Part shown: piece after piece, positions 2-32,290 of the stretch
How the letters are laid out: every line of letters begins with the position of its first letter
Numbering within the stretch: position 1 is the first letter of the stretch
Source of the DNA: Schmidtea polychroa
Taxonomy: Eukaryota
DNA length: 64,000 bases
Reading direction: 5' to 3'
NCBI GenBank assembly: GCA_044892525.1
Contig: CM097885.1
Coordinates: 32,676,001 to 32,740,000 of the forward strand
Made by a program: the position numbers and the translations under genes
Notes under the pieces: model-generated
Databases searched by the model: none
Told to the model about the DNA's origin: nothing
Seen by the model: the letters and a program-made list of their open reading frames with translations, nothing else

Positions 2-3000
2 CTAAAGAGCGGATACTGGCAAATTAAAGTTAAAGAGGAAGATAGAGAAAAGACAGCCTTTACCATCGGAAAAGATTTATATCAGTTTAAAAAGATGCCA
101 TTCGGATTAACAAATGCACCTGCTTCGTTTCAAAGATGTATGAACTTTGTGACACACGGAATTAAACAATGTATGGTGTATATTGATGATCTGTTAATTT
201 ATTCAGGTACTTTCGAGCAACACTTAATCGATATCAGAAACGTCTTCATAAGACTGAAACAATGGAAGCTGAAATTGAAACCGTCAAAATGCGATTGGGC
301 AAAGGAGAGAGTCACGTTTTTAGGACATATTGTGTCGGCAAAAGGAAAGGAACCAGATCCGAGAAACGTTGAAAAGATAAAAAATTGCCCGATACCAAAG
401 ACTGTGACTCAGGTACAAGAATTTCTGGGATTATGCGGATACTACCGCAAGTTCATCAAAAATTATGCAACTATAGCAAAACCAATTCAGGAACTAACGA
501 AAAAAGACACCCCATTTTTGTGGGAAAGAGAACAGCAAATAGCATTCGAATCGTTAAGAGATAAACTAATAGCCTCACCTATTCTAATACACCCAGATTT
601 TAAAAAGCCTTTTCTACTAGCAACCGATGCCAGTGGATATGCATCAGGAGCTGTGCTAGGACAATGGGATGAGGAGAAACGAGAAAGAGTCATCGGATAT
701 TATAGCAAGACGTTCAAAAAGCACGAAAAGAATTACTCAGTCACAGAAAGAGAAGCCTTAGCAATAATTCAGGCGATAAAACATTTCAAATATTTATTGT
801 GGGGACACGAGATAATTATTACTACAGACCATCAACCTCTAGTTTGGTTGGGCCAACACAAAGAAGCATCTAGTCGATTAATGAGATGGGCAATGCAGTT
901 ACAAGAATATTCCCCATACATCAAATTCAAGTCAGGAAAAGCAAACGCAAATGCAGACTGCATGTCGAGATTTGTATTTGAGGAACTCATGGATCATGAC
1001 GTCAGACGAATATGCCTGATAATCGCGGAAGATATCGATTTTACCAATCTAAAGAACGAACAAAAGGAAGACAATGAATTAAAACTAATAATTGAGTTCC
1101 TGGAAAAAAACGATATGAAAATATTCAACAACGATGATCGACTAAAAGAACACATGGAGAAAAATCGTCACAGATATACGATCGAGAAAGGATGGCTATT
1201 GGTAATGGATGGCGACAAACGATTGATGTGTCTACCAGAAAGTAGACGGAAAGAAATTATGATTCAATACCACGATGGTAAATTGGGCGGACATATGTCA
1301 GCCAAGAAAACAGAAGCAAGGCTCAAACAGAAATATTACTGGCCAAATATGAGCGATGACGTGAAAGAATGGATAAAGAACTGCCTGATATGCGCAACCA
1401 GAAAAACAACGGGCAGTAAACTAAAGCCACCATTGAAACCAATGCCGATACCGCCAGAACCGATGACAATGATTGCAATGGATGTAGTTGGACCACTACC
1501 AGAGACTAACAGTGGAAATGTGTATATATTGGTAATAACTGATTATCTGACTAAGTTCCCTGAAGCATTTGCGATGCCAGACCAAAAAGCACGAACGGTT
1601 GCAAGGATATTAGTGGAAGAGATCTGCTGCAGATATGGAACACCAAAACAAATCTTAACTGACCAAGGAACTAATTTCATGAGCGAGATAATAAATGAAG
1701 TGACAAATTATTTTAGAATCGCCAAATTGAGAACCTCACCATACCACCCGCAAACGAATGGTCAGACAGAAAGATTTAACGGCATACTAATAGACATGAT
1801 GTCCAATTACGTGAGTAAACATCAAAAGGACTGGGATGAATATATTAAGTTGTGTCTAATGGCTTATCGAATGTCAATACACTCAGCAACGAAAATGAGT
1901 CCGTTTAAACTCATGTATGGAAGGGAATGCAACATGCCGATGGATCTCGAATACCAACCGCCAATCTCACAATATATGGAAATAGATGATTATGTGACAA
2001 AGTTCAAAGAGAGAATGCAGGAAATATGGAAAACCGCAGGAATGAACATCCGATTCAACCAGGAAAGTTATAAAGAATTACATGATAAAAAGAAGAACGT
2101 GCAAAACCATCAATTTAAAGTCGGAGATTGGGTTATTATAGAAACACCCGAGTTAATCCCAGGAACAGCAAAGAAATTACAACGTAATGGCAGAGGACCA
2201 TATGAAATCATCTATGTAAACGAGAACAACGCTCGAGTAAAGTTGGTTAACAATCCACTAATTAGACCCATATACGTGAATACATGTCGATGTAAAGCAG
2301 TAGCGAAAACTGCCACTAAAGATCCAGAAACAAGGAAGATAATCACGAGATCACAAACAAATGCCACAACAGAACCAGAAGTAAGCGGTAGATTAACTAG
2401 ATCACAGACAAGACGGATATTCATGTTGAGGAGAGAAACAAGCAGCAGCGCCAATAAAGGAACCGAAACAGAAAGCGAAGCTGACGCAATGGCAAGGAGT
2501 CAAGCGACATGGAATATGACAGTAAAAATAGCACGAGAAATTGTACCAGAATGGGCCAATATAACCAATAAATACCAGGTATTAGGCAAACTAATGATAG
2601 TAGCAGAAAGATATGCAAAAGGACGAAGAAACGCTGAAGGAGTACAAGTACCGACTCAAATGTGTGAACTAGTCCGGAGATTACCAATCATGTTCCTAAC
2701 AAGTGATTTGAGTAATAACTGGCCAATCCATCATGCAGTCAAAGCAGGACAGGAAAAACGAGCATTAGAGATCATACGAATAATGGAAAATTGCAAACAA
2801 TCGACAAACGTTAAAAATAGTAAAGGGAAAACTCCACTGATGAAAGCCATAGCAATAGGCGCGTCAAGAGAAGTACTCAGAGAATTATTGAGAACGGGAT
2901 CCACGTTGAAAGAAAAAGACAATAAACAACGAACCATTTTACGTTACGCCGTCAAGTCAAAAAGACCTAGCATACTAAGCTTTATCACGGGAAATGCAAC

Positions 3001-5179
3001 AACCGAAGAAGCCGAGGTGTTGGGACAGAGCATTGAACCAATTCTGGAAGCCATCAGAGGAAACTTAGACAGAACAGCAGCAATGTTAATCAAATGGAAA
3101 CAAAACGAATTAAGAGCGGAAGTAATTGATATAAATCAATTCCAAAACAACGAAAATATCGTACTAAGAAGCGCCATATACTCAAGACCACCAATGCCAA
3201 AAACCATTAAAGCAATATTACAAAGAAATAGAGCAGAATTGACAGGTAATTGGTGGAAATGCACAAAAGCACATACGATGAAAAAGCAACTAGAAATACT
3301 AGTGTGGGAATGGCACCGAAAACAACGGAAATATCAAGGAACCAAAGAAGAACGAGAAAGTATCCACAACGATAAAAAAGAGATAATTAAAAAATACGAA
3401 GAGATGATCAAAGCGACAAATGTCGAGGACGACATTTTTGGGAAAACCCCGGGTGAGAGGAATGACGACGATGACGACGACGAAAGGATGGGGGATAACG
3501 ATAACAACCCAGAGGAAAACGACAGAGAACAAAATCCGGAGGGCGGAGAAACAACGGATGATGATGAGGAGTTGGAAGAAGACGACGATGACCAATGTCG
3601 AGGTGAAGATCAAGGATTCGACAAAACAGAAAACAAAAAACGAAAGTTCCCACTACATAGCATAATGTTTCGAAATCAAATCCAGCCAATCCTACTACAA
3701 AGAATATTTATAATATTAACATCTATCTGTTTAACGGAAACAAAAAATATGAGAATCGTAAGAGAAGCTTTCCAAGAAGGCGAAGTATTTATGATAAAAG
3801 TCAGCGATTACGACGGAAACGCCGTCGGAATATGTGTTCAACTAATGGAAGGAACAGGAGTAAGTTGTGATTTCAGATCGATAACAAAAGGAAAGATTTT
3901 TAACAGCCAAAAAAGAGACCCCAGGCTATGTGGAGATTATGACATTTGTAAAGACATAACAACAGAGGAAATGGAACTAGAAAGAGCTAATGAAACCGGA
4001 GTACATTTCCAACTTAACATTTTGGAAGAAGGTATCGAAATAGAAGATAAAGGGAGTCGATCAATTACACATGTATGCATCAGAGAAGACAGAGACATAT
4101 GCATAATAACTGATATGACACAAGACCACAAATTCTTCTGGGGAGAGGTCAAACCAAATACCCCTACTGTGGTATGCGCAGGAACACAAGGGATAGTAGT
4201 GTGTAAAGGAACAAGAACTGCACCAAGAAAAGACAAACCAAGGAGTATGGCAATTAAACAAGGTCCATTGACGGAGAAAACAACCAAGAAGCCCAAGAAA
4301 TCAGTTAGTACAAAAACAACAACAGAGCTAAATCGAAGCGAATTAATAACAACAACAACATGGATTAACGAAGTAATTAAAGACGAAAGACGGGAAGTGC
4401 AGATAACTATTAACCTCAACAAGAAAGGTGAAGAGGTAATTACAGTCAAAAACCAGGAAGGAGAACCAATCATAAGGATATGTGTAATGGATAAGACGGG
4501 AATAATCGACTGTACAACAACACCGATAGACAAAGGTACAGACGTTAAAATGGAGACAGGGAAACGGAAAGAACGATACCAAGTATGTATCCTTAAGAAA
4601 GGAAGAGGAACCAGCGTATGTCAACCAATAACTCGACAAAAACCCCAATTAATAAACATACCGTGGATACCCCGAGATCAAGAAGGGGGAGAGAAACGGG
4701 AAAATCACAGTCACCTAACAGAAAAAGAGAAGGAACGATTACATCAAGCATTCAAGAAAATCAAAGCACCAGAAACAAATACCACAGGTAGTACAATATT
4801 AACGACAGAAAAAACAAATAATGGAACAACGATCATCACAAAGATGATATGGATAACTAGCGCGATAGTAAGCACGATAATAGCGTTAGCAATGATTCAG
4901 TGGATAAGAACCACCAAAAGATGTAAACAAAAACCGAGAAACCAAAGAAAATGGCCCAAAGTGGAAAAATTTGAATACGGTATTCCAACAGAGAATCTGA
5001 ATCTAGAGGAATACGAGGTGGTAGAGGATCCCGGATCCAGCGGATTGTGGATGTCGGAGCTACCAAGAATACCCACGCCCAACGAATGGACACACGAAGT
5101 CGATATATACCGACTAACGGACGAAAGATATGGGGGAATGCGCACGCTGCATTCCGGTCCCATGGCGACACTGGTATAA
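2..5179 (+). CDS. pol: Pol polyprotein (5'-partial): RT, RNase H, integrase with GPY/F, then ankyrin repeats, acidic tract, Cys-rich region, TM helix and cytoplasmic tail
   Basis: Frame is open from base 2 (LKSGYWQI...KTAF...MPFGL). YIDD at 179-190; RNase H TDAS/EALAI/TDH; HHCC (HDGKLGGH..CLIC); DDE (MDVVGP, TDQGTNF, QTERFN); RGPY ~2192; ankyrin-like WPIHHAV, GKTPLMKAI, RTILRYAV ~2714-3090; TM MIWITSAIVSTIIALAMIQWI 4844-4906. Confidence 0.95.
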   Translation, partial: LKSGYWQIKVKEEDREKTAFTIGKDLYQFKKMPFGLTNAPASFQRCMNFVTHGIKQCMVYIDDLLIYSGTFEQHLIDIRNVFIRLKQWKLKLKPSKCDWAKERVTFLGHIVSAKGKEPDPRNVEKIKNCPIPKTVTQVQEFLGLCGYYRKFIKNYATIAKPIQELTKKDTPFLWEREQQIAFESLRDKLIASPILIHPDFKKPFLLATDASGYASGAVLGQWDEEKRERVIGYYSKTFKKHEKNYSVTEREALAIIQAIKHFKYLLWGHEIIITTDHQPLVWLGQHKEASSRLMRWAMQLQEYSPYIKFKSGKANANADCMSRFVFEELMDHDVRRICLIIAEDIDFTNLKNEQKEDNELKLIIEFLEKNDMKIFNNDDRLKEHMEKNRHRYTIEKGWLLVMDGDKRLMCLPESRRKEIMIQYHDGKLGGHMSAKKTEARLKQKYYWPNMSDDVKEWIKNCLICATRKTTGSKLKPPLKPMPIPPEPMTMIAMDVVGPLPETNSGNVYILVITDYLTKFPEAFAMPDQKARTVARILVEEICCRYGTPKQILTDQGTNFMSEIINEVTNYFRIAKLRTSPYHPQTNGQTERFNGILIDMMSNYVSKHQKDWDEYIKLCLMAYRMSIHSATKMSPFKLMYGRECNMPMDLEYQPPISQYMEIDDYVTKFKERMQEIWKTAGMNIRFNQESYKELHDKKKNVQNHQFKVGDWVIIETPELIPGTAKKLQRNGRGPYEIIYVNENNARVKLVNNPLIRPIYVNTCRCKAVAKTATKDPETRKIITRSQTNATTEPEVSGRLTRSQTRRIFMLRRETSSSANKGTETESEADAMARSQATWNMTVKIAREIVPEWANITNKYQVLGKLMIVAERYAKGRRNAEGVQVPTQMCELVRRLPIMFLTSDLSNNWPIHHAVKAGQEKRALEIIRIMENCKQSTNVKNSKGKTPLMKAIAIGASREVLRELLRTGSTLKEKDNKQRTILRYAVKSKRPSILSFITGNATTEEAEVLGQSIEPILEAIRGNLDRTAAMLIKWKQNELRAEVIDINQFQNNENIVLRSAIYSRPPMPKTIKAILQRNRAELTGNWWKCTKAHTMKKQLEILVWEWHRKQRKYQGTKEERESIHNDKKEIIKKYEEMIKATNVEDDIFGKTPGERNDDDDDDERMGDNDNNPEENDREQNPEGGETTDDDEELEEDDDDQCRGEDQGFDKTENKKRKFPLHSIMFRNQIQPILLQRIFIILTSICLTETKNMRIVREAFQEGEVFMIKVSDYDGNAVGICVQLMEGTGVSCDFRSITKGKIFNSQKRDPRLCGDYDICKDITTEEMELERANETGVHFQLNILEEGIEIEDKGSRSITHVCIREDRDICIITDMTQDHKFFWGEVKPNTPTVVCAGTQGIVVCKGTRTAPRKDKPRSMAIKQGPLTEKTTKKPKKSVSTKTTTELNRSELITTTTWINEVIKDERREVQITINLNKKGEEVITVKNQEGEPIIRICVMDKTGIIDCTTTPIDKGTDVKMETGKRKERYQVCILKKGRGTSVCQPITRQKPQLINIPWIPRDQEGGEKRENHSHLTEKEKERLHQAFKKIKAPETNTTGSTILTTEKTNNGTTIITKMIWITSAIVSTIIALAMIQWIRTTKRCKQKPRNQRKWPKVEKFEYGIPTENLNLEEYEVVEDPGSSGLWMSELPRIPTPNEWTHEVDIYRLTDERYGGMRTLHSGPMATLV

Positions 5180-5325
5180 CGAGAGGAGGAGTTGTTGTAA
5201 ATAATGTATAAATGAAATGATAAAAGTAGTGATAATAGTAGTAGTATGTACAAATAAAAATAGAAAATTAAAACAATATGTAGAAAATCAAAAACAAGTA
5301 TGATGACCATGTATTATAAATAGGA

Positions 5326-5781
5326 ATGAACCAGAGAAACGAATAGCAAGAACACCCAAATGGGATACCACATGTTGTTGAAGTAAGAGAACAGCCGCTA
5401 ATGAATGTACATCCAGTAGACATGATGGAAATGAACGTGCCAAACCAGCCGAGTCAGCCAACAGGATCCATGTGGAGGGCACAGTGTGAATTAATGACCC
5501 AATTGACAAATCAGACTCAAGAGCACTGGGTACGAAACCAAACGGCGTTGATAGAGAGTATTAATAGAAATGCAATATATATTACAAAAATAGAGGAACA
5601 ACACCAAATAATCGCGTAACTAGAGTATAATAACAATCAGTTAATAAGCCAAATCAGATGGCAAGCGGAAGAAATTAGAAGGTTGCATGAAAATCGACAA
5701 CATGATGATATTACCAGTTTAGTCGAGTGGATGACCGGGTTACCAGGAACAGGGGAACCGGACTCGACGGTAGATGTATAG
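5326..5781 (+). pseudogene. Disrupted cargo ORF, small coiled-coil protein
   Basis: ATG at 5326 follows an AG. The frame runs to TAG 5779-5781 with two in-frame stops (5344, 5617) and includes the listed 5401-5619 ORF; QAEEIRRL resembles motifs in the other coiled-coil ORFs. Confidence 0.6.
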
Positions 5782-5870
5782 GAGAGAAAGGAGTGAAATG
5801 TAAATAATCCTGTAAATAAATAGAGTTATAATCAAGTAGAAATCCCAAGATTAAAAATCATCATTGTAGA

Positions 5871-7294
5871 ATGCAAAACAAAGCAGAGGAAAACCGGAGA
5901 GAAGCAGAGGAACAAAAGATTAACTATGAGTTGATGAGAAAATACCAAGCCGAGCCGGACGAGTTCGAAGAGAGATTATTATGTGCCGATACAGCATGTA
6001 GAAGATTATTAATTGGAGCAAGTCAAACTCGATGCGGGTGTAGATTGTGCCGAGGGTGTGATATAAGATTAGCCAGACTAAAGCGAGAAACTTGTCCAGG
6101 ATGTGGAGAAGCATTTAAGTTGGTTCCCACTGGTACGATACCGGATAGAGCAATGAACCGAGAAATCAGAGAAGTGAAAATAAGATGCACCCAAAGGTCA
6201 TGCGAATGGACAGGCCGAGTAAAGGAGTTAAGAGCCCATACAGACGTATGCGAATATCTAGAATCGGAATGCGAAGCATGCACGGTAAAGTTGTTACGAA
6301 AAGAGAAAACCAAACATAAAGGGGAATGCGAAGCGCGAACGGAAAAATGCGAATTTTGCGGAGAAACTGCTAATTGGAGAGAAATCGAAATGGAACATCG
6401 AAACGCAGTAGAAAGACGGATTTGCGACGAATATACAGGGAAATGCCCAAACGAGTGTGGAGAAATTAACAACGTCAGATTAAATGAACATTGGGAGATA
6501 TGCACGAGAAAAGCAATAAGATGCCCAATGGTGACATTCGACTGTAGAGCACAATTACCAGCAGAAGAAATGAAGAAGCATGTGGAGGAGAATACATTCG
6601 AGCACATGCAAAAGATGATGAGAGCAATAGAGTTAACAGCAAGAGCAATTGAAGACGTCAAAGACGAACTCAAATCACATAAAATCATGATAAAAGAAAT
6701 GCTGAGCTCACAGGAAAGCTTCGAAAATACGAGAGAAGCCGTAACACAAAGGATGTTGAAATTAGACGACAAATTAGTCGAAGTAACTAAATTACAAACC
6801 AAATGGACTACAAAGGAACTGACAACAGAGGAACTACCAATACTACCATACATGTGGAAAATCCAAGGAATAACGGAAATAATGGAGCAAGCAAAGCAAG
6901 GAATCCAGACAACGATAGTGAGCAAACCATTCTACGCCAAGAAACATGGATACAAGATGAAATTGAGATGGTTTCCAAATGGTGAAGGAAAGTTTAAAGA
7001 TCGGTGCATGTCCATATATATGCAAATTTGTAAAGGAGATTTTGACGACCTAATAGCATGGCCATTCCGACATAGATTAAAAATATCTCTCTTAGGAGCA
7101 AAAAAGACACATATAATGTGTTTTCGAGCATCCAGTCCAGCAGGGAATAAACCGATTACAGAGGTTAATCCTGCGGTAGGAGTAGCAGAGTTTATGCAGC
7201 TATACAATTTAATGAAGGGTCCTACATAGAAAAGGACACTATATTCTTCCTAATCGAACTAGATGAGGAAGGACCAACAATAGAAATACGATAG
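5871..7294 (+). CDS. TRAF-family protein (RING, TRAF zinc fingers, coiled coil, MATH); frameshift near 7220
   Basis: RING-like CADTAC..CGCRLCRGC..CPGC; CEWTG..H..VC zinc fingers; MATH SKPFY..GYKMKLRWFPNG..SIYMQICKGDFDDLIAWPF. The last MATH strand SYIEKDTIFFLIE is in a shifted frame (7220-7294). Confidence 0.92.
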
Positions 7295-7434
7295 ACGGAT
7301 AGAAGGGAACTGTAAATATTTTGTAAAAACGATGTAAAGTAAATATAAAGTTATTGTATACAGTAAAGTAACTTGCCAAAACCATAAAAATTAGAAAAAG
7401 AAAATGTAAAAAGAAATGATGAAATTTATTATAG

Positions 7435-8613
7435 ATGATTAATCAAGAGAGACCGAATATCCGAAAGAAAACGATCACAATGAGAGAGGAAGAGGACAAT
7501 ATGTCACCTAGAGAAAGAGTGAAGGATGCGGAAGTCAGCAAAACAAAACCAAGTAGTTACGCATATTATCGAAGAATGGGAAACGATTATAATTGGGTAC
7601 ACGAAAATTTGAAACTGGGAGATAATGAACAATTCAGATGTGAGAACCAGAGATATCTGTCATTTGAAGATCAGACCATTTTCACCAAGGAACAGAGCCG
7701 AGCGCTAGCACGCGACGGATTTTTCTTCTCCGGAAAACCAGAGATACCCGATCAAGTAACGTGTCGTTTCTGTAAAGGGAAATTAGCAGAATGGAAAAAA
7801 GGAGAACACCCAAAGGAGGAACATCGTAGACGATTCCCAACTTGTCTATTCGTACTGGGATTTGATGTACACAACAAACCGGAAATCAAATACGAAGCCT
7901 TGGAGAAATTGAAAACTGAAGACGAAAAAGGAGGGAAAATGAGCATCGCGATAACCAGAATCGTTGATGAGTATGTTCCAACTTGTGAAGGGGAATTCCT
8001 CACGCAAATAGCAGATAATAGAATGAAAACGTTCGGAGATGATACGAGAGGACCTGAATTAGCAATAAGAGGGTTCTACCTAACAGAAAATCAAATACTA
8101 AAGTGTGAAAGATGCGAAAGCCAACAGAGATTACCGGAAGAAGGCATACCAGAAATTAGACATCAAGCATGGTGCCTATATCACAACGAACAAGAAACCG
8201 AATATCCGGAAGTACTAGTAACAGAGGAAGAGGTTGACGAAGTGGTAGACAAACCCAACATGTGCAGAGCGTTGAAAGCAGCCGGAATAGGCACGACAAG
8301 GGCAAAGAACATGATTAGAGAGAGACTACAGAAAAATGTACATATACCAACAACAACGTACGATATGATCAGAGCGATAACCCAGTATAGAGAAAAACCT
8401 GAAACAAAAATAAAAGAAGAATCAATAGTCAAAACAGCTATCTTACGAGATATCAAATGTACTATGTGTTGGGAGAGGAGTGTAGAAGTTATTCATATGC
8501 CATGCGGACATTTGATCGCATGTGCCACGTGTAGTAGGAAAATAAAAGAATGTCCAATGTGTAGACAGAGGATTGCGCAGCGAATCAAAGGATTTCGCTA
8601 CGCCGATCAATAA
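7435..8613 (+). CDS. Inhibitor of apoptosis (IAP): BIR, degenerate second BIR, UBA-like region, C-terminal RING
   Basis: BIR1 RYLSF..LARDGFFF..DQVTCRFC..W..H....C; BIR2 RMKTF..LAIRGFY..CERC..H...C; RING CTMC..PCGHLIACATC..CPMCR. Confidence 0.95.
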   Translation: MINQERPNIRKKTITMREEEDNMSPRERVKDAEVSKTKPSSYAYYRRMGNDYNWVHENLKLGDNEQFRCENQRYLSFEDQTIFTKEQSRALARDGFFFSGKPEIPDQVTCRFCKGKLAEWKKGEHPKEEHRRRFPTCLFVLGFDVHNKPEIKYEALEKLKTEDEKGGKMSIAITRIVDEYVPTCEGEFLTQIADNRMKTFGDDTRGPELAIRGFYLTENQILKCERCESQQRLPEEGIPEIRHQAWCLYHNEQETEYPEVLVTEEEVDEVVDKPNMCRALKAAGIGTTRAKNMIRERLQKNVHIPTTTYDMIRAITQYREKPETKIKEESIVKTAILRDIKCTMCWERSVEVIHMPCGHLIACATCSRKIKECPMCRQRIAQRIKGFRYADQ

Positions 8614-8696
8614 CGAAAAATAAAAATTTCGTGTATAAAGTGTAGATAATAAATGTATGAAATAATAGTAGTAGTAATAGTGTAATTATTTAGACA

Positions 8697-10295
8697 ATGA
8701 ATAAAGAATCACAAACCTATGTGGAAACCGAGATGCAACAACTCGAACAGTACAAATCCATCATACAAACATACGAAGCAGAAAGAGTAAAGAGAGAAAT
8801 AGAAATGTACAAAACCATGTATGAGAAAAAGCAACAAGAGTTAGAAGTGGAGAAGGCGGAAACACTAGCAGCAAAAGAGAAGTGGATGAAACAGGTAGAG
8901 GAATTAACCGAAGATGTGAGAAATACATCAACATACCAAGAATTGGAGGAGGAGCTCTCGAACTTACGAACTCAGCGGATTATGGAGATAGTTGGGTTAT
9001 GCGGAGAGATAATAATGCAGAAGACACAAATTAGAGAAGCAAAGGAGCAATACGAGGAAGAACAGCGTAAAACGGAACGAATAAAACTACAAGCGCAACA
9101 ATGGAAACGAAAATACGAAACCCTCCAAACGAGGCAGAATGATAGTCACGAACATCAAATACGAGGGTATAAAGTAGAACTAGAAGAAGCAAAGAATCAA
9201 TGTGCAATGATGAAAGAAAAATGGGAAAGATGCAAAAGGACCCTAAGCGAAGTCAGGGGACAAGGGAGGAGAACACCACGTAAAGAACCAATCGTTAAAG
9301 ATAACGTATTAGAGCGAATTAACGCACAAATAAAGATACAAGCTCAGAAATGGAAGTATAAATATCTAGGAAGTCAAACCCAAGTGCTCTATTGGAAAAT
9401 CAGTAGCAAGGAACAACTGCGATTACGAAAAGCAGACCAAGAATTTTACGAAATAAGGGCTACACAGCGAGAAGAAGAGGAAGTAGAGTGGAGAAAACGA
9501 CAGCAGAAATTTGAGGAAACCGAAGAGTGTCTCAAGCATCAAGCCCGAAAATGGAAAAAGAATTGGAAAGAGACCAAAGAGGAGTTAAGACAGTTACCAA
9601 TGAAACTGATGGAAAGAGACGAATTTAAAATGTGGGAAACGATAGAAAACCAAAAAGATGAGATCAGCCGATTGAGTAGAGAACATAGAATCAAGACGCG
9701 GACCAGCGACGGTAGACGGAGAGTCATAAAGAAACAGACTCGAGAAATAAGAAGGTATGAATACCAGGAAAAGAGATGGGAACAACAATTGACAGACCAA
9801 GATCGACAGATCCGACAATTACAAACAGAGGTAGAGGAAGCTAATCAAGAGATGAACGGATATAAAGGTATGTACACCCAAAGGGATGTGAATTGGAAGC
9901 ATCAGATTGCGCTTAATGCGAAATGTAGAGAGGAGTGCGATAAGGCAATTCAACAAGCCAAACAGGAAACCGAGATAATAAAACGATGCTTCGAAGAAAA
10001 TGAAGCGAATCTGAGAGCAGAAATCGAGAAGTTGAAAATGCTTGAAAAAACCCAACGATTGGAAGAGGAATTGGATGAGATGATAGAAAACGAAAGTAGA
10101 TTAACGTTTCTGTTGGATGAAGAAATAAACATCGCAACGGAATTGCGGGAGGAAGTAGAGCGGTTAAGAAGACAACCACCAATACTATTAATGCCACTCT
10201 ACCCGTTCCCATTACAAGTGCCACAGCCTGCCGAAGTTACAGCAGATGAAGGCTTCGAAGAAAATAACGAACAAAATAACGCAACATGGATTTAG
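8697..10295 (+). CDS. Long coiled-coil protein of unknown function (cargo)
   Basis: 532-aa intact ORF, E/K/Q/R-rich heptads, internal repeats QAQQWKRKY / QAQKWKYKY / QARKWKKNW, Pro-rich tail. Confidence 0.85.
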   Translation: MNKESQTYVETEMQQLEQYKSIIQTYEAERVKREIEMYKTMYEKKQQELEVEKAETLAAKEKWMKQVEELTEDVRNTSTYQELEEELSNLRTQRIMEIVGLCGEIIMQKTQIREAKEQYEEEQRKTERIKLQAQQWKRKYETLQTRQNDSHEHQIRGYKVELEEAKNQCAMMKEKWERCKRTLSEVRGQGRRTPRKEPIVKDNVLERINAQIKIQAQKWKYKYLGSQTQVLYWKISSKEQLRLRKADQEFYEIRATQREEEEVEWRKRQQKFEETEECLKHQARKWKKNWKETKEELRQLPMKLMERDEFKMWETIENQKDEISRLSREHRIKTRTSDGRRRVIKKQTREIRRYEYQEKRWEQQLTDQDRQIRQLQTEVEEANQEMNGYKGMYTQRDVNWKHQIALNAKCREECDKAIQQAKQETEIIKRCFEENEANLRAEIEKLKMLEKTQRLEEELDEMIENESRLTFLLDEEINIATELREEVERLRRQPPILLMPLYPFPLQVPQPAEVTADEGFEENNEQNNATWI

Positions 10296-10325
10296 TCGGA
10301 GAGAGGTTGCCTGTAAATAAGAATG

Positions 10326-10355
<30 letters not shown>
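10326..10355 (+). repeat. A30 homopolymer in a cargo spacer
   Basis: 30 consecutive A, shortly after TGTAAATAAG. Confidence 0.95.
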
Positions 10356-10360
<5 letters not shown>

Positions 10361-10454
10361 AAGCCAAAACCAAATAAAAATTACAAATTACAAAACCAAA
10401 AATTCAAAATAAAAGGGAGACGAAAGGAAAAATGATGTGTATATTTTTGTAGAT

Positions 10455-11165
10455 ATGAATTATTTAAAAGACAGAGAATCAACGAGTAACGCAAGAAAAT
10501 CAATTGACCAACCTGAACAAAGCCAGAATACGATACCAATCAAACAAGAACCGATGAAATATTATAGTAATAAATGGAGAGTCAGCAAGAAGTTGTTCAA
10601 AACAAAAATCGCAAATCAAAATGTAGAGATTACGAGATTGAGACAGCATATTGTTCAATCAAGACGATTAATAAACACTGTCAAGCAGGAAATTTTGAGG
10701 GAAATAAATGAATCGAAACTAAAAGAGACGGAAAATAAAAACCTGAGACAAGAGATAGTAGAGTTGAGAGCTCAGGCAGTAATCGAAGACTATTGGAAAT
10801 CAGAAACAAGGAAGTTGAAAAAGATTGTGAATATCGACCAAGTGTATATCGAACAATTGGAAGCACAATACGCTTATGCAAAAGCGAGAATGCGGGAAAG
10901 TAAAAAGGTCGACAAGAGAAACGCAAGACTCAAGGAGGAGATCAAGGAACAAAGAGAGGAAACAGAAAAACAATGGAAGTTGAAAGAGAATTATCGGAGA
11001 ATTTTAAATCAAAAACGACGAAGCATGCAAGCACTGCAGACGACAATGACCATCAGACAGAGAAAATGGAAAAGTGAAGAGAAGCGATTACAAGAAATGC
11101 CAGAATTAAAGAGACAGTTGATGGCAACGCAACTCGAAGTAATAAGGATGAACGAGTTGAGTTAA
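10455..11165 (+). CDS. Coiled-coil protein of unknown function (cargo)
   Basis: First ATG at 10455 after TTTTTGTAG; basic coiled-coil composition; IANQNVEITRL resembles IENQKDEISRL in the preceding ORF. Confidence 0.8.
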   Translation: MNYLKDRESTSNARKSIDQPEQSQNTIPIKQEPMKYYSNKWRVSKKLFKTKIANQNVEITRLRQHIVQSRRLINTVKQEILREINESKLKETENKNLRQEIVELRAQAVIEDYWKSETRKLKKIVNIDQVYIEQLEAQYAYAKARMRESKKVDKRNARLKEEIKEQREETEKQWKLKENYRRILNQKRRSMQALQTTMTIRQRKWKSEEKRLQEMPELKRQLMATQLEVIRMNELS

Positions 11166-11297
11166 GACGAGCACCTGAACCTCCCGTAAAATTAAGGGAT
11201 GAGGTCGGTGGCTCCCAATAAATGAGATAAAATAACTGTGTAAATAAATTGTAAATAAAGCCAAGTAATTATTATTAACGTATATGTATATGTAAAG

Positions 11298-12284
11298 ATG
11301 AGAAGCCTAACCGTGGTGATAATTATAATGACAATGCCCAGAATCCTGCAAGCTGAAGAATCAATGATCAGATGCCAGAAAGAATACCCATATCGCAGAG
11401 AAGATAGCACCTGTAGTAGCTTTAAATCAATCTGTGAAAAACCCAATGAAGAATGCGAACAAATCAAGTTGCAATGTTCGCAATGTCCACAAACAACTGG
11501 AAGTTCGACGGAAATGCAAATGGCTCAGACAATGAAAACAATATTAGAACAAGAAATGAAAGTTATCAGAACCCAGATAGCAACATTAGCCAAACAATTC
11601 CAAAGCCAGAAATCAAAGAAAGAAACCCAAACGGATCCGGCCGCAATGAGAATGATGGTAATAATATTAGAGGAAATAAAACAACAGGTAACAGCAACCG
11701 CCAATGGACGTTCAAGCAATTGCGAAATAGTAGTAAAATCTTTAGAGGAAATGAAAGGGAAAATAACTTCCATCATCAAAGAGGAACCCAGCATTAAAAA
11801 TGAGGTAACGAAAACATTGAAAGAAATGACAAAAGAAGTCCTAACTACCATAAACAAAAACCCAATGAACTCCGAGAAGATGATTAAAACCCTGGAGGAA
11901 ATAAAGAAAGTTGTCAACTCGGAAGAAAACAAATTCAACAAACCCGAAAAATCAGAAATTACAGATACAACCCAATTGGGAGAAATGATAAACAAACCCA
12001 GAGTAGTAGAACTAAGAGAATCTGAACCCCTCACAATATTGATCCTATTAGCGGCAAGCCTAATGATAAACATTACCGTACTGAGCCTGATTGCACTCAA
12101 ACCCAATTCCAGTAAAGCAAGAAACAAAACCCTCAAACTAAAAGAACAATCAAAGAATATTCATATCCCAATGGAAGAACAGCTAATCCAAACAACGAAC
12201 CAACCAAGATACTTCAAATCTTCCCCAAACATCGAAACCAGAGCCGTCATCGAGACGAGATCCCGAACAACAGAATTCTATTAG
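11298..12284 (+). CDS. Type I membrane protein: signal peptide, 6-Cys domain, helical stalk, TM helix, tail with PxEE (TNFR-like or env-like)
   Basis: N-terminal MRSLTVVIIIMTMPRILQA; C-x12-C-x6-C-x6-C-x6-C-x2-C; repeated KTLEE(I/M)K-type stalk units; TM LTILILLAASLMINITVLSLIAL; PMEE at 12168-12179. Confidence 0.85.
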   Translation: MRSLTVVIIIMTMPRILQAEESMIRCQKEYPYRREDSTCSSFKSICEKPNEECEQIKLQCSQCPQTTGSSTEMQMAQTMKTILEQEMKVIRTQIATLAKQFQSQKSKKETQTDPAAMRMMVIILEEIKQQVTATANGRSSNCEIVVKSLEEMKGKITSIIKEEPSIKNEVTKTLKEMTKEVLTTINKNPMNSEKMIKTLEEIKKVVNSEENKFNKPEKSEITDTTQLGEMINKPRVVELRESEPLTILILLAASLMINITVLSLIALKPNSSKARNKTLKLKEQSKNIHIPMEEQLIQTTNQPRYFKSSPNIETRAVIETRSRTTEFY

Positions 12285-13298
12285 TGTGACATCATGACAG
12301 TAAAAACATTTCACGACATTATAAACGATAAATCATCCTGATCGAACAATTGATTTCAAAGACTGAGACTACGATTAATGACACTGATTCTTGAGCATGA
12401 TAATGTTATTTTTATGTGGGCCGACCTCGGTCGTTCTTTTCCTTCATCTTTCAACCCATCTGTAAAATGTAGTGTAATAGTAGCATTTTTATGTATGTGG
12501 GTATTGAGGTCACGACCCTGTAGCTCGTGGACCCAATTTGCATGTAGGCACTTGTAATATAGTGCAAGTATTCTGAAAATTAATCTTATTCATCTTTGGA
12601 TTTAAATTGCGGGTCGCAATTTTATGGGCCCCCGAGTGTTTTATGTTGGGCTAGAACTGATTTCTAGACCCAAACTACTAATTGTGACTGAAACGTGCAG
12701 GTACACAACATGTAAAAAGCAAAAAGTATAGTTAAATATTAAAACCTACACCAAATAAACAATATTAACTAAAGGAGAAAGCAACAAAAACATAAACAAA
12801 GAAATTAAATAAAATTATACAGAAGCAAGAAGTGATGCAAAAATCTAACTCAAAAATAACCAAACAAACATAGAATTACCAAAAGCAAACTCGAATAACT
12901 TAAAAGACGATAAAAATAGTAAAACATTCCAGAAAGACCCAGAACATTCTATAAAATGGCGATGACCATCACAAAAGTCATCTAGAACAACAAAAGTTAA
13001 GGAAAATAAATGAATTAGTATTAAAAATAAAAAATCTCAAAAAGAAATTCATAAAAACATCAGTTAAAAATAAAAATTAAATTAAAAGTAAAATAGAATG
13101 TTCTGGAACCGTTCCAAATCCATCATGGACGTAAAGTAATGAAAAAATAATTAAAAAATAAAAATTTAAAAATAAAAACAAAAATTATAGCACAAAAATT
13201 TCCACAAAAAATATAAAAATCATGAAATAGAAAATTCTGGAATAAAAAGAATTCGAGTTTGTTTTAACGCATCAATACATACACGTGTACAAAATAGG

Positions 13299-13307
13299 TA
13301 TATATAC
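13299..13307 (+). promoter_or_regulatory. Candidate LTR TATA box
   Basis: TATATATACTG at the switch from A-rich to T-rich + strand; equivalent position to TATAAATACTG (~20756) in the short LTR. Confidence 0.4.
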
Positions 13308-16202
13308 TGACACGTTTCAGGCACATTAAGCATTATTTTGTTTATGCCAATATTTTATTAGAAATTTTCCGAAAATTATTAGTAAGTAGATTTTTCTTTT
13401 GTTATTCGATGTTATCATGATTAATGTAACTATTTTAATGTAGATTAATATCCATAAGATCAATTTCTTTTTATTTTTTATCTTTTATTAAAAATTTTTG
13501 TTTGAATACGACTGATCAGCGGCGTCTCAGTGCGTCTCTGTTCAGTCCTGCATTTGATATTAACAATTTTTGAAACATGCAGACATGCCATATTCTATAT
13601 ATATATTTTTTTTTGTTTGGTCATCGGAGGTCGGCCACTTCATGGTTCTACCATGGAGTTGTGTCGATAAAACCCCTCCGCTATGGCTCTATATGCTTTA
13701 TTTATCGGTCGACAGTGATGTTTCGACTCAACACAACAGTAGGGCTTGTCGTAGCGGTCACAGTGGGGCCGTGTAAGCAAGCATTCTTCCCGAGTACAAG
13801 CAAACATATTTAATTTCAACATTAAAAATCGTAGACAATAGGGTACACTAAGGTCATAATCGAGTAGATCTCAGACCCAAATTGAACACAGCAATTACAA
13901 TTCAGCTAATGTAGTCGGTTAAGACCTCTCCACTTACACGTTTGTCGAACCTCATTGAGAAATAATTTTTCGTATCAGTGTAAATGTCTCTCTCGAAATT
14001 GACCGTAATGATGCTCACGAAGGAGTTCGACAAGCGTGAATCGTAAAATGAACTATATACTCTCCTGTTACACTTAAACATCAGGCTATAAATGTATAAT
14101 GTTCCTAAACTATAGAATATATGTTAGAATTGCTAAATACTTAGAATTCCTAAATGGTAAAACATAACTTACTACCGTACTTAGAATTATATGTGATAAA
14201 TACGTAATACCTCTAAATTACAAATATGAGTTAATATTGTCTTCAAAAATATAATTTATAAAAGTTAAATTGTCAAATACCTCTTAATACTATGCCTGAA
14301 AATAATGCGGAATATTCATAAATTATAAAATTTTACTTTATACTATCCTCAAAATTATAATCTATAAATGTGTAAAACATAATTTATAAATATGAAATTA
14401 TAATATACATGCTTGAAAAGCAATTTTAAAAATGTGTAATATTCCTAAATTATGAAATTTTACCCTATATTATTCTTAAAATTATAACTTATACCTGTGT
14501 AAAAATATAATTTATAAATGTCAAATTGTAAAATATAACCTAGTACTATGCTTGGAGGTATAATTTATTATGAAATATAACCTATTTCTATACTTAAAAA
14601 TATAAGTTAAAAAGGTACGTAAATAATTTTTATTGTACCTAAAAATATGATTTATAAATATGTAATATTACTAAATCATAAGATTGTATTGCTTGTGGTT
14701 CGTAAATCTTACCTTGAGATTATCAGTAGCAAACTAAAATGTAAACTCATACTACGTATAAATTATAAATTATATCTTAGTATTTTCTGTATAAAAGTAT
14801 AAAGTCATGCTACTCATAAAGTACAAATTATGTCTTAGAATTATACACAAAAATATAAACTATAGGTTTATATTGCCCATCAATTATAGAATGTAACGTA
14901 TGCATAGAATGCAAATTACAAACTATAAGGTATGATTTTGGTTATAAGTTATAATTTCGGTATCCATAAATACAAATTATAAATTCCAAAGAATAGAAAC
15001 TATTACTAGCTATATATAGCTCATGAGTCCGTAAAGTGTAAATTGCAAGGCTGAAGTGTGGATTATGGAATAATTATATAAAGTATAAACCGTAGATTAT
15101 TTTTATAAAAGTATAATCTAATTATATGTCTAAATTATAAAATTATATATCAAAATTATCTATCTAAAAATTATATATCTAAATTACACCTCTAAATTAT
15201 ATATCTAAATTATATAAACTTATAAAATACCATCGTAAATTTAGATTACCAATTATAAACTATGATTTCATACTCCATATAAGGTAAAGGACCAAATTCT
15301 GAATTCTAAGTTTATATTTCGTATATAATTGATGAATGACGAATGTATAAAATGTACAGTTGCGTATGCGAAATTAGCTAGGTTATAATTAACCCCTACG
15401 CCAAAATCATGGAGTACAATGACAAACATAAAGGAGAAGCACGCCCGACCTCTAGATCGGAAACCGCAGTGAAGCTTGACGGTAATTTAATTAAAACTAA
15501 TTTAACATCCAGTCGAAAGAGAGAATAATATTTAACATTTATTTTACAACATCAAGGTTCTAGTGGGCTGAACCAGGATTGCCGAGAGAAGTTCATTGTG
15601 GGCTGGAGTCTTGCATACTCCAGCTGTTCCCGCTCGTTGCTGGGAATTGCAAATAGGATTGACAGTTGCGGATAATTCCTGAACTTTACGAATCTACTAA
15701 TTTTAAATTTACAGTCTAACTTACTTCGAAGGATCCAGATGAATTGCAACACAGAAGGGAATGAATCTAAAAATCTAATATACCAAAATAAACTAAATTT
15801 ATCAGAAAAAAGTTTTTAAATATTTAAAAGCCTTATAATTACATGTATTTAAAATTTACTATTCAAAACCATTGTAGTTTACTTTAAATTTGACCTTATT
15901 ATGATTGTTACGATAAAACACCGTAAAATATGATTAATTGGTAATTTCCGCGTAAGGTAAATTTTAATGTATAGTGAAAGACTTGAATTTTAATTTAAGC
16001 AAAAGTTGAGGGTACCCTTTCAAGTACAATTTAAGTTAATCTGATTAATTGTTTAAATTATGAACATTTGGAGTTTGTTTCGTATTTTAAGCAAATTTTT
16101 TTGTTGTGTGTGGTTTCATATTAGCCCGCGAGCGTTGTAGCAGAGAGAAGCGTTCTCGTTTGCATTGTGATAACCTTATTAATCATTGCTACCCAAACAG
16201 AT

Positions 16203-16568
16203 ATGTCACACTCAGACGACTACAGCGATGATGACGGCTACAGACAAATAATCACCCGGCTCCGGTCCCGGTACGTCTGGTTTCACATCCATCGGTGGAG
16301 CCAGGGACGGGACTTAGATTGTTCCAACCAAGTAATCCGGACGGGCCCCGAAGTGGATGCCCCGGCGTGGGTAAAAGTAGAGCCCACCAACAACGTGCTC
16401 CGGGAAGCCCGCGATCGAGCGGCCGATGAGGTGGTGGAGGCCCAAAAGCGGCTGAGGAGACTCGAGCTCCAACTCAAAGCCGAAACACTGGGGGTAACTC
16501 TTGAAGAGCTGGAGGAGACCGACACCCCTCCACGAAAACGGGGAAGGCCCCGCAAGAACCTGGCCTGA
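16203..16568 (+). CDS. LTR-encoded small protein with coiled coil and C-terminal AT-hook
   Basis: GC-rich ORF in AT-rich surroundings; ATG directly after ACAG|AT; PRKRGRPRK at 16530-16556. Confidence 0.7.
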   Translation: MSHSDDYSDDDGYRQIITRLRSRYVWFHIHRWSQGRDLDCSNQVIRTGPEVDAPAWVKVEPTNNVLREARDRAADEVVEAQKRLRRLELQLKAETLGVTLEELEETDTPPRKRGRPRKNLA

Positions 16569-16881
16569 CTCATCGACAGGCGCGGCTTGAATGGAATGGT
16601 TTTGACTGATTTCATCCAGTGATATTTTACCTTGTAGTAGCATGACGAATTGTATTTTTCTTTTGTTCGTTAAATCTTGACAATATAGTCTATCGTGTAT
16701 CTTCGTAGTGCAATAAATTAATTTTTGTTTCGCTATTACATTTTGAACTTTATAGCTAATGGGGTGTATTCATGATTGAGGTGCCCCTTTTCTCATCACC
16801 CACTTATTAATTTCATGCACGTACTCTAACCAACTTTGCGCACCTGGATGCGAGCGATGGAATTTATTATTATTTTCTTCA

Positions 16882-17316
16882 GTGTACCAGTTATTGGAAA
16901 ACCTACGAAAGGACCGCGAACAGGCCCAGCAACAATCCGAGGGTCTCCGAGGTCGGGTCGAAAAACTCAAGCTGAAGTATCGAGAACTCCAAAGTACGTG
17001 GTTCAGTCCGGCCGACATGAAAAAACAAACTACGCGCATCTCACAACTCCAGACCCAGGCGGAGCAAGATCAGCTCGAGATCCGAGCGCTGAAGCTACAA
17101 GTGCGCTCGCTCGAGAGTAAATTGAACGAAAGGATTGTCCAGGACACCCTTTGCGAGCAGATTCGTCCTCTTGCCGTAGAGTTGGCCCGGATATACCCAC
17201 CGGCCCAGACGAACAAGCCGAAACGCAAACGGTTAGGGCGGAACACCCGAGAGAAATTGAAAAGGGCCTGGCTGGCCGAGCAGGAGAAAGGGAAAGAGCC
17301 GGAAGGCAATCCATGA
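16882..17316 (+). CDS. LTR-encoded coiled-coil protein with basic NLS-like tail; needs splicing or a GTG start
   Basis: GC-rich ORF beginning at a strong acceptor TTTTCTTCAG; heptad pattern; KPKRKRLGR. Confidence 0.6.
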   Translation: MYQLLENLRKDREQAQQQSEGLRGRVEKLKLKYRELQSTWFSPADMKKQTTRISQLQTQAEQDQLEIRALKLQVRSLESKLNERIVQDTLCEQIRPLAVELARIYPPAQTNKPKRKRLGRNTREKLKRAWLAEQEKGKEPEGNP

Positions 17317-18360
17317 TCTTGGGAGGCGTTCGAGAGTGCGTGAACAATCCGTGTAATATGGTGGTGGCTTAATAAATGAGTCTTGTTATTTAATGAGTAT
17401 GAGAGTGAACTTTGCTGTTGTCAAAAACAGGATGGTTGGCGGGAAGGCGCTTGGAAAAACAATCTCGATGAGGGACCGAAATAAATCGGACACGTGCCTT
17501 CTATCGGCGTCCGTGAACCCATAGAGTGCTCGACAATTACAGTGCTTGGCGCGCTCACTTTTTGCGAGTACTCAACCCCTTGGTACAGTACCAACGTTGA
17601 TTGCTCAACGGGTACCAAGAGGAAAACAATGTTGTATTCTGGGTTACGCTGGTAACAGCACTTAAACATTCAACCACCAGTAACCCACCATGACTTTCAG
17701 AATATTTCTTATATATTTTGATGCCCCTTGCTCGCTTCGCCTGTTCTCTCATAATAAATTGTCACTACATTTTTTTATATAATATAAAGAGTAAAATAAA
17801 TTTGAGAATTTCACTAGGTGCCGCTTGTAAAGAATTTGTGGTGGCTAACCTATATCTAGGCGCAATTCGTTCAGTCGGTAATTTGTTAAGATCTTTTAAT
17901 TTAAATACGGAAAATTCAACTTTGAATTTTGAAATGAATCATTTTTTAACAAAAATGGTTAAAAATCTTTACTACTGAGAAAATTGAATAAAAGTGAACA
18001 ATTATTATTAATTATTTTTTAAATTAATCAAATTTAATTATTTAAATTTTATATCTTCTTTACCGCGGTAAATTAACCAAAATGGCTAAAAATGAAAATT
18101 TTGTGGGTAATGAATGCGTAAAAAAATATTTATACTATTTTAATATCAATTTAAACGCAATTTTAAATTGAAGATGTAATGTATCGGTGCAAACAAATAT
18201 AGTTTAGGATAATAGATGAAGAAGCTTCACCACTCGTGTCTTAGATACTACTGCATATCTCAATATAATGAAATATTTCAATTATAAATAACAAACGTTT
18301 TATATTTTGTCGTTTTTTTCATATTGAATATTAATTATCTTGAACATAAATATATTTCAG

Positions 18361-18657
18361 GGATTTTTTGTGGCTCTGATTTATTGCTTCCTCAATCGTG
18401 AAGTTAGATTTGTCTTAAAAGCAAAATATCGGAGTTTCCGAGGGTATTTGCCAAGTGCTAGTCGCACAAGACAAACTATTGATGATTCAATTGGTCCGGT
18501 TCGAAGGGGAAATTCAGCATTTAGACCTCTCAAACAAGATTATGACAATAAAGTTTTCAAATGTCGATCCTATCGCTCACAGCACAATAATAATGGAAAC
18601 AATGCTAACCCGGTTATTCAAAAGTATGAAACCAATGTTGAAAATCAACAAGCATAG
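18361..18657 (+). CDS. Terminal coding exon of a class B (secretin-family) GPCR: TM7, helix 8 and C-tail
   Basis: TTTCAG acceptor then (Q)GFFVALIYCFLNREVR, the class B TM7 signature; stop at 18655-18657; AATAAA at ~18835. Confidence 0.88.
   Translation, partial: GFFVALIYCFLNREVRFVLKAKYRSFRGYLPSASRTRQTIDDSIGPVRRGNSAFRPLKQDYDNKVFKCRSYRSQHNNNGNNANPVIQKYETNVENQQA

Positions 18658-30808: not shown

Positions 30809-30868
<60 letters not shown>

Positions 30869-31997: not shown

Positions 31998-32058
<61 letters not shown>

Positions 32059-32253: not shown

Positions 32254-32290
<37 letters not shown>
30028..32290 (+). repeat. Left composite TIR (~214-bp units, TCAAGGTCA arrays, (TTA)n)
   Basis: Blocks are reverse complements of 37447-39546, with differences in unit number. 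Confidence 0.85.

Follow-up and report, generated by a model that had tools for sequence, protein, structure and literature searches.

Can a retrotransposon carry a signalling pathway of its own? The question is raised by a 64,000-nucleotide stretch of the Schmidtea polychroa genome (the window), in which an earlier note saw a Gypsy element encoding ankyrin repeats, a TRAF, an IAP and two type I membrane modules, and read them as a self-contained kit for survival or immune signalling. We compared the family of this element (family A) with family B, represented by four copies (L051, L057, L058 and L061), and with family C, represented by its 3' part. Coordinates are those of the window, and all features given lie on its + strand.

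The element is 35,510 bp long, with LTRs of 5,047 bp, an internal region of 25.4 kb and a 4-bp flanking target-site duplication (TGAC). Its 3' LTR (12644..17690, 5,047 bp, TG...CA) shows three mismatches to the 5' LTR. The Burro (or GYPSM1) elements, Gypsy-like LTR elements of giant size found in dugesiid planarians, are described as exceeding 30 kb, about 25 kb of which is internal, and as having, in Burro1, a giant ORF of 4,873 aa, against 4,688 aa here (PMC6431247). Both have a polyprotein with Gag, three CCHC-like knuckles, MATH, an env between gag and pol, PR-RT-RH-IN and ankyrins, and BIR and coiled-coil (Smc-like) cargo is common to both (PMC6431247). Thousands of Burro copies have been reported (PMC6431247); our queries each gave at least 93-150 scored matches. 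The guess that this is a Burro element is thus borne out by anatomy, the assignment being made from the published description and not from alignment to the Burro1-4 / GYPSM1 reference sequences. MATH, BIR, ankyrin and BCL2 cargo has already been published for Burro elements, as has, in the form of a hypothesis, meddling of this cargo with host apoptosis (PMC6431247). The portion of that account covered here describes neither a downstream RING-zinc finger TRAF ORF nor the two type I membrane modules, and neither selection on cargo nor a spacer motif. Some of these may appear in the primary descriptions (Grohme 2018, Jurka 2007). Nothing on membrane modules, cargo selection or a spacer motif was found in the literature beyond PMC6431247. 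An env between gag and pol likewise occurs in the GAG-ENV-POL errantiviruses of Platyhelminthes, Nematoda and Bryozoa, in a paper whose main text (supplements aside) does not use the words Burro, TRAF or ankyrin (PMC13524379, covered in part).

The polyprotein (4,688 aa from the first Met) begins some 8.9 kb before the window, in a frame that stays open through two upstream loci (L012, L011) and into the window. Its upstream part contains Gag/CCHC, MATH, a weak BCL2-like domain, Env and protease, with Env, in frame ahead of the protease, matching Monjiviricetes_fusion (E 2.4e-70). The C-terminal 1,725 aa (2..5179) carry the end of RT, RNase H and integrase (2..1804; Pfam, in Gypsy order), the ankyrins and a membrane module. 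The ankyrin repeats (2726..3271; Pfam match at about 2726-2986, Ank_2 E 1e-7) and acidic tract (3434..3637; 46% D/E over 68 aa) reported earlier are both confirmed, inside the pol ORF. These ankyrins look generic, their best PDB matches being designed ankyrins, and no IkB appears among the best 60 of 147 PDB matches. The BCL2-like domain has no Pfam match in the family A element and reaches E 0.066 in family B; the segments of the two families are 35% identical, and their profile finds no match in the PDB. The TRAF3 segments R/Y, PDPxS and IASG are retained in the polyprotein MATH, which suggests a largely intact, TRAF3-like pocket. To the features first noted are to be added two coiled-coil ORFs and a small ORF in the window and, upstream of it, a RING ORF, env and another MATH domain. 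A MATH piece at 19187 was considered as a host exon and rejected, being a repeat.

The first membrane module (TM1) is the C-terminal end of the polyprotein. It starts with an internal signal-peptide-like hydrophobic segment (3680..3742, hydropathy 1.69), comparable to one that precedes the ectodomain in families B and C, followed by an ectodomain of three related beta-rich repeats (3782..4654) and by a helix (polyprotein aa 1615-1633) with a 90-aa cytoplasmic tail (4844..5176). Both type I modules first described have their TM helices, but this one is not a separate gene. Repeat 3 is modelled as an all-beta sandwich (pLDDT about 85) with an Ig-like match (Z 9.3, rmsd 2.5, 71 aligned); repeats 1-2 are modelled with low confidence, yet align with repeat 3, and the family C counterpart of the ectodomain has a weak fn3 score (E 0.12). 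As modelled, the TM1 ectodomain is Ig/FN3-like and not TNF-receptor-like: it has no cysteine-rich CRD ectodomain of the TNF receptor superfamily, and no TNF receptor appeared in the fold-match lists for the membrane modules, though such lists may miss one. The ectodomain profile found no match in the PDB, its search returned one bacterial repeat protein, dismissed as spurious, and fold matches from a viral library were disregarded for their very high rmsd. Neither TM1 nor TM2 found homologues in Atlas. The TM1 tail carries two YxxPhi motifs and no TRAF2, TRAF3 or TRAF6 consensus.

Six ORFs follow the polyprotein. The small ORF (5401..5619) has a homologue in the corresponding position of family B (30%, E 6e-10). 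The stand-alone TRAF (5871..7229) has the full order of RING, zinc fingers, coiled coil and MATH (MATH E 9e-23; RING E 0.022 here and 9.5e-5 in the sister family), as claimed, but in the window copy its frame breaks near the 3' end (~7200-7229), leaving 465 aa against 487-491 aa in 92/93 scored matches. It shares 28% identity across 446 aa, and a CGC RING, with an intronless, host-like TRAF found in the same genome; its MATH pocket is altered, the Y, serine run and IASG serine being lost. The IAP (7435..8613), announced as BIR-BIR-RING, has an IAP-type RING and one intact BIR (Pfam E 1.6e-15); the other BIR is degenerate, with no Pfam BIR match and 6.6 bits against a cIAP1 BIR. Single-domain scores place the intact BIR at 51 bits with XIAP BIR2 and 43 bits with cIAP2 BIR1, a modest gap; the TRAF2-binding BIR is BIR1, according to the covered part of PMC9204419. 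Homologue searches with the IAP and the TRAF found just 3 and 4 distant proteins, respectively. The coiled-coil ORFs CC1 (8697..10295, an open frame of 533 aa) and CC2 (10455..11165) are both common to family B. A ten-row MATH tree was unresolved, with 0 starred branches, and no donor or order of capture is therefore claimed. The cargo is also covered in four contig sets, which say nothing on expression, starts or splicing.

The last ORF, TM2 (11298..12284), encodes a signal peptide, an N-terminal six-cysteine domain, near-invariant among family A copies, a stalk predicted to be helical and oligomer-prone, a TM helix and a 61-aa tail. The six-cysteine part has no Pfam or PDB sequence match (model pLDDT <50), a homologue search with TM2 found none, and a supposed likeness of its cysteine spacing to small TNF-receptor ectodomains gained no support from Pfam or the PDB. 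The PxEE motif first reported in a tail is indeed present as PMEE (12168..12179), which fits the TRAF2 major consensus, but it is not clearly beyond chance, as the TM2 tail, when shuffled, yields [PSAT]x[QE]E in 25% of cases and PxEE in 3%; the former consensus also recurs many times in the element's other proteins. PMEE is unchanged in 23/23 other family A copies and absent from family B tails. Among eight tails, one has the TRAF2 major consensus, and the family C tail has one PxQxT; a TRAF-binding tail motif is kept within family A only. Predicted in complex with the polyprotein MATH, in a run without controls, the TM2 tail scored 0.31 against a mark of 0.34, which speaks neither for nor against binding. 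Of all the ORFs TM2 changes fastest, B1 and B2 being 41% identical. Since the sequences of A and B2 give no significant alignment, the grounds for calling them homologous are position, topology and a few residues of the tail.

All six inter-ORF spacers (6/6) contain, on the sense strand, the motif UGUANAUA (TGTA-N-ATA), at 5196, 5799, 5811, 7311, 8641, 10312, 10448, 11239 and 11250 (5196..11257). The downstream ORFs would need their own messages or internal starts, and this conserved motif probably marks such control.

Selection was one of the checks proposed for the cargo, and it turned out to be purifying in each of the six cargo ORFs tested among family A copies (p < 1e-5 for each), with transition-corrected pN/pS of 0.11 for the TM1 part, 0.25 for CC2, 0.28 for CC1, 0.31 for the IAP, 0.33 for the TRAF and 0.48 for TM2; the small ORF gave no significant result (2 silent and 2 amino-acid changes). 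In family B, with saturated or failed B1-B2 dS values left out, dN/dS is 0.06-0.18 for the polyprotein end, TRAF, CC1 and CC2, and 0.46-0.49 for TM2. Constraint in the family B modules is strongest on the FN3-like domain (0.04-0.08) and the TM helix, the tails reaching 0.31-0.73. Shared changes in the family A TM2 divide into 0 amino-acid and 7 silent ones for the cysteine domain, and into 6 amino-acid and 5 silent ones for the tail. The tails are thus among the least constrained parts of the membrane proteins; as short linear motifs may work while a disordered tail drifts, they may signal all the same. The cargo also proved to be common to the genomic copies, which together with purifying selection argues for functional cargo of a virus-like element.

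This cargo is not a fixed set. Family B keeps ankyrins, TM1, TRAF, CC1, CC2 and a TM2-like ORF, and its four copies have no IAP match, no MATH in the polyprotein and no TRAF motif in the tails. Family C (RT-IN 45% identical) ends in integrase-signal-fn3-like-stalk-TM-tail, and 17.5 kb of it gave no match to ankyrins, a TRAF or an IAP. Env and the FN3-like membrane module are therefore core parts, TRAF, ankyrins, coiled coils and TM2 are parts found in two families, and the IAP and polyprotein MATH are optional. Since sister families mix and match their cargo, it resembles separate tools and not one receptor pathway.

A pathway confined to family A would have TM2 as a receptor mimic, clustered by its stalk, with the cysteine domain sensing a ligand or serving as a decoy, PMEE recruiting the protease-released MATH, the element's TRAF or a host TRAF, the IAP acting as ligase in a survival signal, and UGUANAUA providing control. 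The herpesvirus protein LMP1 and its like act in much the same way. The invariance of PMEE in all 23 copies, the invariant cysteine-rich domain above an oligomer-prone stalk and the TRAF3-like segments of the polyprotein MATH are what such a mimic would show, as is the joint presence of PMEE, IAP and polyprotein MATH in A and their joint absence in B, a pattern drawn from two families. We nevertheless consider it unlikely: a quarter of shuffled tails yield the consensus and seven of the eight natural ones do not have it, the stand-alone TRAF has an altered pocket, the intact BIR scores higher with XIAP BIR2 than with the BIR1 type that binds TRAF2, and no IkB is found among the best ankyrin matches. 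Clear NF-kB homologues were moreover not identified in a planarian, in the covered part of PMC13563047; our own genome search for a Rel domain (RHD) gave no match anywhere, its controls being equally without match, and so has no bearing on this. The locus does recall the TNF receptor-TRAF2-cIAP complex in encoding a TRAF, a RING-bearing IAP and a [PSAT]x[QE]E membrane protein side by side, but it differs in its Ig/FN3-like TM1, altered TRAF pocket, XIAP BIR2-like BIR, tail motif not kept across families and IAP missing from family B. The self-contained receptor-TRAF-IAP-IkB reading of the earlier note is thus weak, as the BIR, stand-alone MATH pocket and ankyrins do not clearly display the cIAP-BIR1, TRAF2-pocket and IkB hallmarks. 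Of the coherent module it opposed to random capture, the selected cargo stands, but the coherence finds no support, as IAP, ankyrins, polyprotein MATH and PxEE vary from family to family where the membrane modules are retained.

Capture of host mRNA pieces as functionless passengers could account for the A-run of 19-69 nt after CC1 in 11/12 loci examined, as captured messages would show, and for 3'-UTR-like motifs after stop codons. It is very improbable, however, being refuted for six ORFs (not for the small ORF) by pN/pS well under 1 and contradicted by open frames colinear across families at 28-34% identity and by TM2 frames without a stop in 115/122 scored matches; purifying selection on six ORFs therefore means that the cargo is not random capture. 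We are also doubtful that particle assembly, exit and cell-to-cell spread, rather than immune modulation, are what the membrane, coiled-coil and ankyrin proteins are for, with only the IAP, RING and BCL2-like parts acting against death. TM1 is translated together with Env and Pol and occurs in A, B and C, family C keeping it without signalling cargo in its 3' part; Env is a Monjiviricetes-type fusion protein, and constraint is greatest on the FN3-like domain and TM helix. Yet the TRAF is kept under purifying selection in A and B, we know of no assembly role for a TRAF, and the rapid change of TM2 is more like that of a host-facing factor.

We favour, as the probable reading, a very young, full-length Burro-type Gypsy copy with an env gene, whose accessory genes, judging from sequence, were gained and lost singly, are functional and would act mainly on host targets. 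Each would help the element-making cell survive: the IAP and upstream RING ORF would be ubiquitin ligases or binders of caspases or their antagonists, the BCL2-like domain would have mitochondrial death as its target, and competition with the host's many TRAFs, or their re-wiring, would fall to the TRAF and MATH domains. The two membrane proteins, in which selection acts chiefly on the outer portions and TM helices, are therefore most likely surface or particle proteins (for attachment, adhesion or decoy binding) and not receptors signalling to the element's TRAF. Baculovirus IAPs, poxvirus ankyrin and Bcl-2-like proteins and herpesvirus TRAF-recruiting membrane proteins are accessory genes of this kind in complex viruses. 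The likeness lies in selected, modular, host-derived anti-death and ubiquitin genes beside fast-evolving surface proteins in an env-bearing element; here, however, they sit on a Gypsy retroelement, partly within its gag-pol polyprotein, with roles that domain families suggest.

Burro elements fill planarian genomes, and both their type and the idea that they tamper with apoptosis and ubiquitination (2007-2019) were known; what is added here is the selection on their cargo, the modular comparison of families and the spacer motif. As its selection indicates, the cargo is of use to the element; with the comparison of families, what was a vague idea becomes a set of questions on single genes in an RNAi-friendly animal. 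If the receptor mimic were real, a retrotransposon would be equipped with a survival-signalling circuit of its own. Planarian TRAF gene counts may, in addition, be inflated by thousands of element-borne MATH domains.

The window element is a Burro-type retrotransposon whose cargo is both selected and modular. An ORF scan finds seven long ORFs on the + strand (window 2-12284). The first (2-5179) is the end of a main ORF of 4,688 aa, counted from the first Met, whose product runs from Gag with CCHC knuckles through MATH, a Monjiviricetes-type fusion Env (E 2e-70) and protease to RT, RNase H, integrase, ankyrins, an acidic tract and a first membrane module (TM1), with a coiled coil-RING ORF located in the leader of the element. 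Pfam places RT, RNase H, integrase and ankyrins within 2-5179, where the earlier note had rightly read ankyrins and an acidic tract, and further downstream (+) finds zinc fingers and MATH of a TRAF (5871-7229) and one BIR plus RING of an IAP (7435-8613). The full TRAF architecture claimed there is present, but the window copy's frame is disrupted near its 3' end (open frame of 465 aa, where 92 of 93 scored matches have 487-491 aa); of the claimed BIR-BIR-RING IAP, the RING and one BIR stand, whereas the second BIR is degenerate. Both membrane modules are borne out by hydropathy, with TM helices near the end of ORF 2-5179 and in ORF 11298-12284 (TM2, +), the latter carrying PMEE in its cytoplasmic tail.

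A 5,047 bp LTR (window 12644-17690, +) differs by 3 mismatches from the other LTR, which lies upstream of the window at a distance of about 18 kb; LTR ends are TG...CA, the target-site duplication is TGAC, and the full element measures 35,510 bp and is very young. The LTR contains two ORFs (16125-16568, 147 aa, and 16780-17316, 178 aa; both +) that match no Pfam family, and the family B LTR region likewise has an ORF. Directly 3' of the 5' LTR lies a primer-binding-site-like sequence (L012:5235-5257, in a stretch upstream of the window) that resembles a tRNA-Pro site. A recurring motif at about seven domain borders of the polyprotein (upstream stretch L011 and window 2-5179) is a candidate cleavage signal.

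Burro/GYPSM1 of planarians exceeds 30 kb, has an ORF1 of 4,873 aa and carries MATH, BIR, ankyrin, Smc-like and BCL2-like motifs, with env between gag and pol; its apoptosis and ubiquitination domains were suggested to meddle with the host (PMC6431247). The window element is like it in length (>30 kb), single giant ORF, env position and MATH, BIR and ankyrin domains, so that the guess of a Burro affinity proved sound. Once PIWI silencing is lost, BURRO1 transcripts are reported to occur in the intestine (PMC8532177). In our literature search the membrane modules, cargo selection and spacer motif were undescribed, and figures or supplements of Grohme 2018 and Jurka 2007 may already show extra ORFs.

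The cargo is shared among copies, as genome searches gave at least 93 matches for TRAF (scored among 1,915 candidates, 98-100% identical), at least 122 for TM2 (among 1,076, 90-100% identical, 115 without a stop) and at least 150 for BIR (among 309), all three counts being lower bounds. Pairwise dN/dS for TRAF, IAP and the coiled-coil ORF CC1 (8697-10295) is 0.10-0.30 against copies about 93% identical. The pN/pS values, computed from distinct variants and corrected for a transition bias of 4.75, are 0.11 for the TM1 part (9 copies), 0.25 for the second coiled-coil ORF, CC2 (10455-11165; 11), 0.28 for CC1 (10), 0.31 for IAP (19), 0.33 for TRAF (19) and 0.48 for TM2 (23), each with p < 1e-5, in a non-random sample of copies returned by the searches, where related copies have variants in common. 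The small ORF at 5401-5619 holds too few changes for an estimate. Because pN/pS is low in all six ORFs (0.11-0.48), random capture of the cargo is ruled out, as the earlier note had supposed; a ratio near 1 was found in none of them. Shared changes in the IAP RING comprise 1 amino-acid vs 12 silent (degenerate BIR, 1 vs 11), and those in TM2 comprise 0 vs 7 in the cysteine domain and 6 vs 5 in the tail (p 0.08).

Modularity emerges from two sister families. Family B (RT-integrase 81% identical) ends its polyprotein with two ankyrin blocks, an acidic tract, a signal-like segment, one ectodomain unit, TM and tail, followed, colinear with the window, by the small ORF, TRAF (34%; at least 92 genomic matches), CC1, CC2 and the last type I membrane ORF; IAP is absent between TRAF and CC1, MATH is absent from the polyprotein, and the leader contains a RING ORF without BIR. 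Three further B-type copies gave no IAP match, two of them belonging to a subfamily (TRAF identity 69%). Family C (45% identical in RT-integrase) has a 3,051-aa frame ending in integrase, signal segment, fn3-like domain (E 0.12), Thr-rich stalk, TM and tail; over the 17.5 kb from protease onward, its 3' part only, neither ankyrins nor TRAF nor IAP gave a match. TRAF is thus independent of IAP, since family B keeps the former with no match to the latter, and TM1 is independent of TRAF, since family C keeps a TM1-type end with no TRAF match in the part read. One family B copy (L061:215-5581) has a deletion, seen once, that fuses the TM1 module in frame to TRAF, predicting a TRAF that is anchored in the membrane and closes the polyprotein. 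Another cargo ORF in family C (L055:4461-5525) resembles by eye a DEDD exonuclease, with no Pfam match.

This bears on the self-contained receptor-TRAF-IAP kit proposed in the earlier note, which fails in family B and which we consider unlikely even in family A (the window element and its close copies), although family A alone combines PMEE, IAP and a polyprotein MATH. PMEE is unchanged in 23/23 family A copies while adjoining residues vary, a constancy that weighs little at ≥90% identity; against it, the TRAF2 major consensus occurs in one of eight distinct tails, that of the window TM2, and in 25% of shuffled TM2 tails (PxEE in 3%). One family C tail has PxQxT. In family B, dN/dS is 0.04-0.08 for the FN3-like domain and 0-0.08 for the TM1 helix vs 0.31-0.73 for the tails. 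The model of TM1 repeat 3 is a small beta-sandwich (pLDDT about 85) with best fold matches to Ig-like domains (Z 9.3, rmsd 2.5, 71 aligned); the TM2 cysteine domain gave no match in sequence and fold comparisons and no confident model.

Among the intracellular parts, the polyprotein MATH aligns with TRAF3 and retains the arginine and tyrosine segments as well as PDPxS and IASG, which we take to form the receptor pocket; in the stand-alone TRAF, read in an unbroken copy, the tyrosine and the IASG serine are gone and the serine loop is shortened. Among single domains, the intact BIR scores best with XIAP BIR2 (51 bits, vs 43 for cIAP2 BIR1), BIR1 being the TRAF2-binding domain (PMC9204419). Matches to the ankyrins are generic repeats, and the best 60 of 147 include no IkB; in a planarian, no clear NF-kB homologues were identified, though it has seven divergent RHD factors (PMC13563047).

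An intronless host-like TRAF in the S. polychroa genome shares a CGC RING with the element TRAF (28% identity over 446 aa), a similarity that fits capture from the host; a tree including it gives no resolved placement of the element TRAF. A TRAF MATH fragment at 19187-19432 (+, Pfam E 3e-20) is itself a dispersed repeat: the 150/150 scored matches show 93-100% identity, lie in short open frames and are spread over each of the four large contigs, and it seems that a second mobile element spreads this piece. An expansion of MATH domains is reported for a planarian (PMC6109357), and dispersed copies could inflate planarian TRAF counts. Several other multi-copy ORFs genome-wide are Bcl-2-like, with short frames of about 150-200 aa, many having TAG at one place.

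Among neighbouring sequences, 18328-18657 (+) has, on visual inspection, the look of a class B GPCR's final exon (no Pfam match), and the element may therefore sit in a host gene. A 490-aa ORF at 44206-45678 (-) has a SET domain (E 2.5e-12) and PHD-like cysteines. Long inverted repeats that contain tandem arrays (30028-39546) and reach 99% complementarity over 471 nt are probably a DNA transposon. Upstream of the element, a 1,127-aa ORF (L014:2019-5399) resembles by eye a Polinton-type protein-primed DNA polymerase; Pfam finds Endonuclease_7 only.

The inter-ORF spacers carry TGTAAATA 7 times in 1,048 bases vs 0 in 11,235 coding bases (mean of 0.12 when the bases are shuffled, 0/5,000 shuffles reaching 7), and with any fifth base (TGTA-N-ATA) the motif is found on the sense strand of all six spacers (5196-11257). 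As it was noticed before testing and tested on the same DNA, the independent check is its recurrence in families B and C (L051, L057, L055), often 14-18 nt past a stop codon. The motif, which we take to equal a Pumilio element, to overlap UGUA-AAUAAA 3'-end signals and to resemble a forkhead site, is a candidate Pumilio or 3'-end element, a role in RNA being favoured by its sense-strand bias. An A-run after CC1 (10326-10355; 19-69 nt in 11 loci) may be either what is left of a captured message's poly(A) or a homopolymer that is unstable in length.

Rather than a kit, we think it fairly probable that the cargo consists of separate accessory proteins, which would blunt host death and TRAF signalling, together with two surface proteins that would have been selected for their outside parts.
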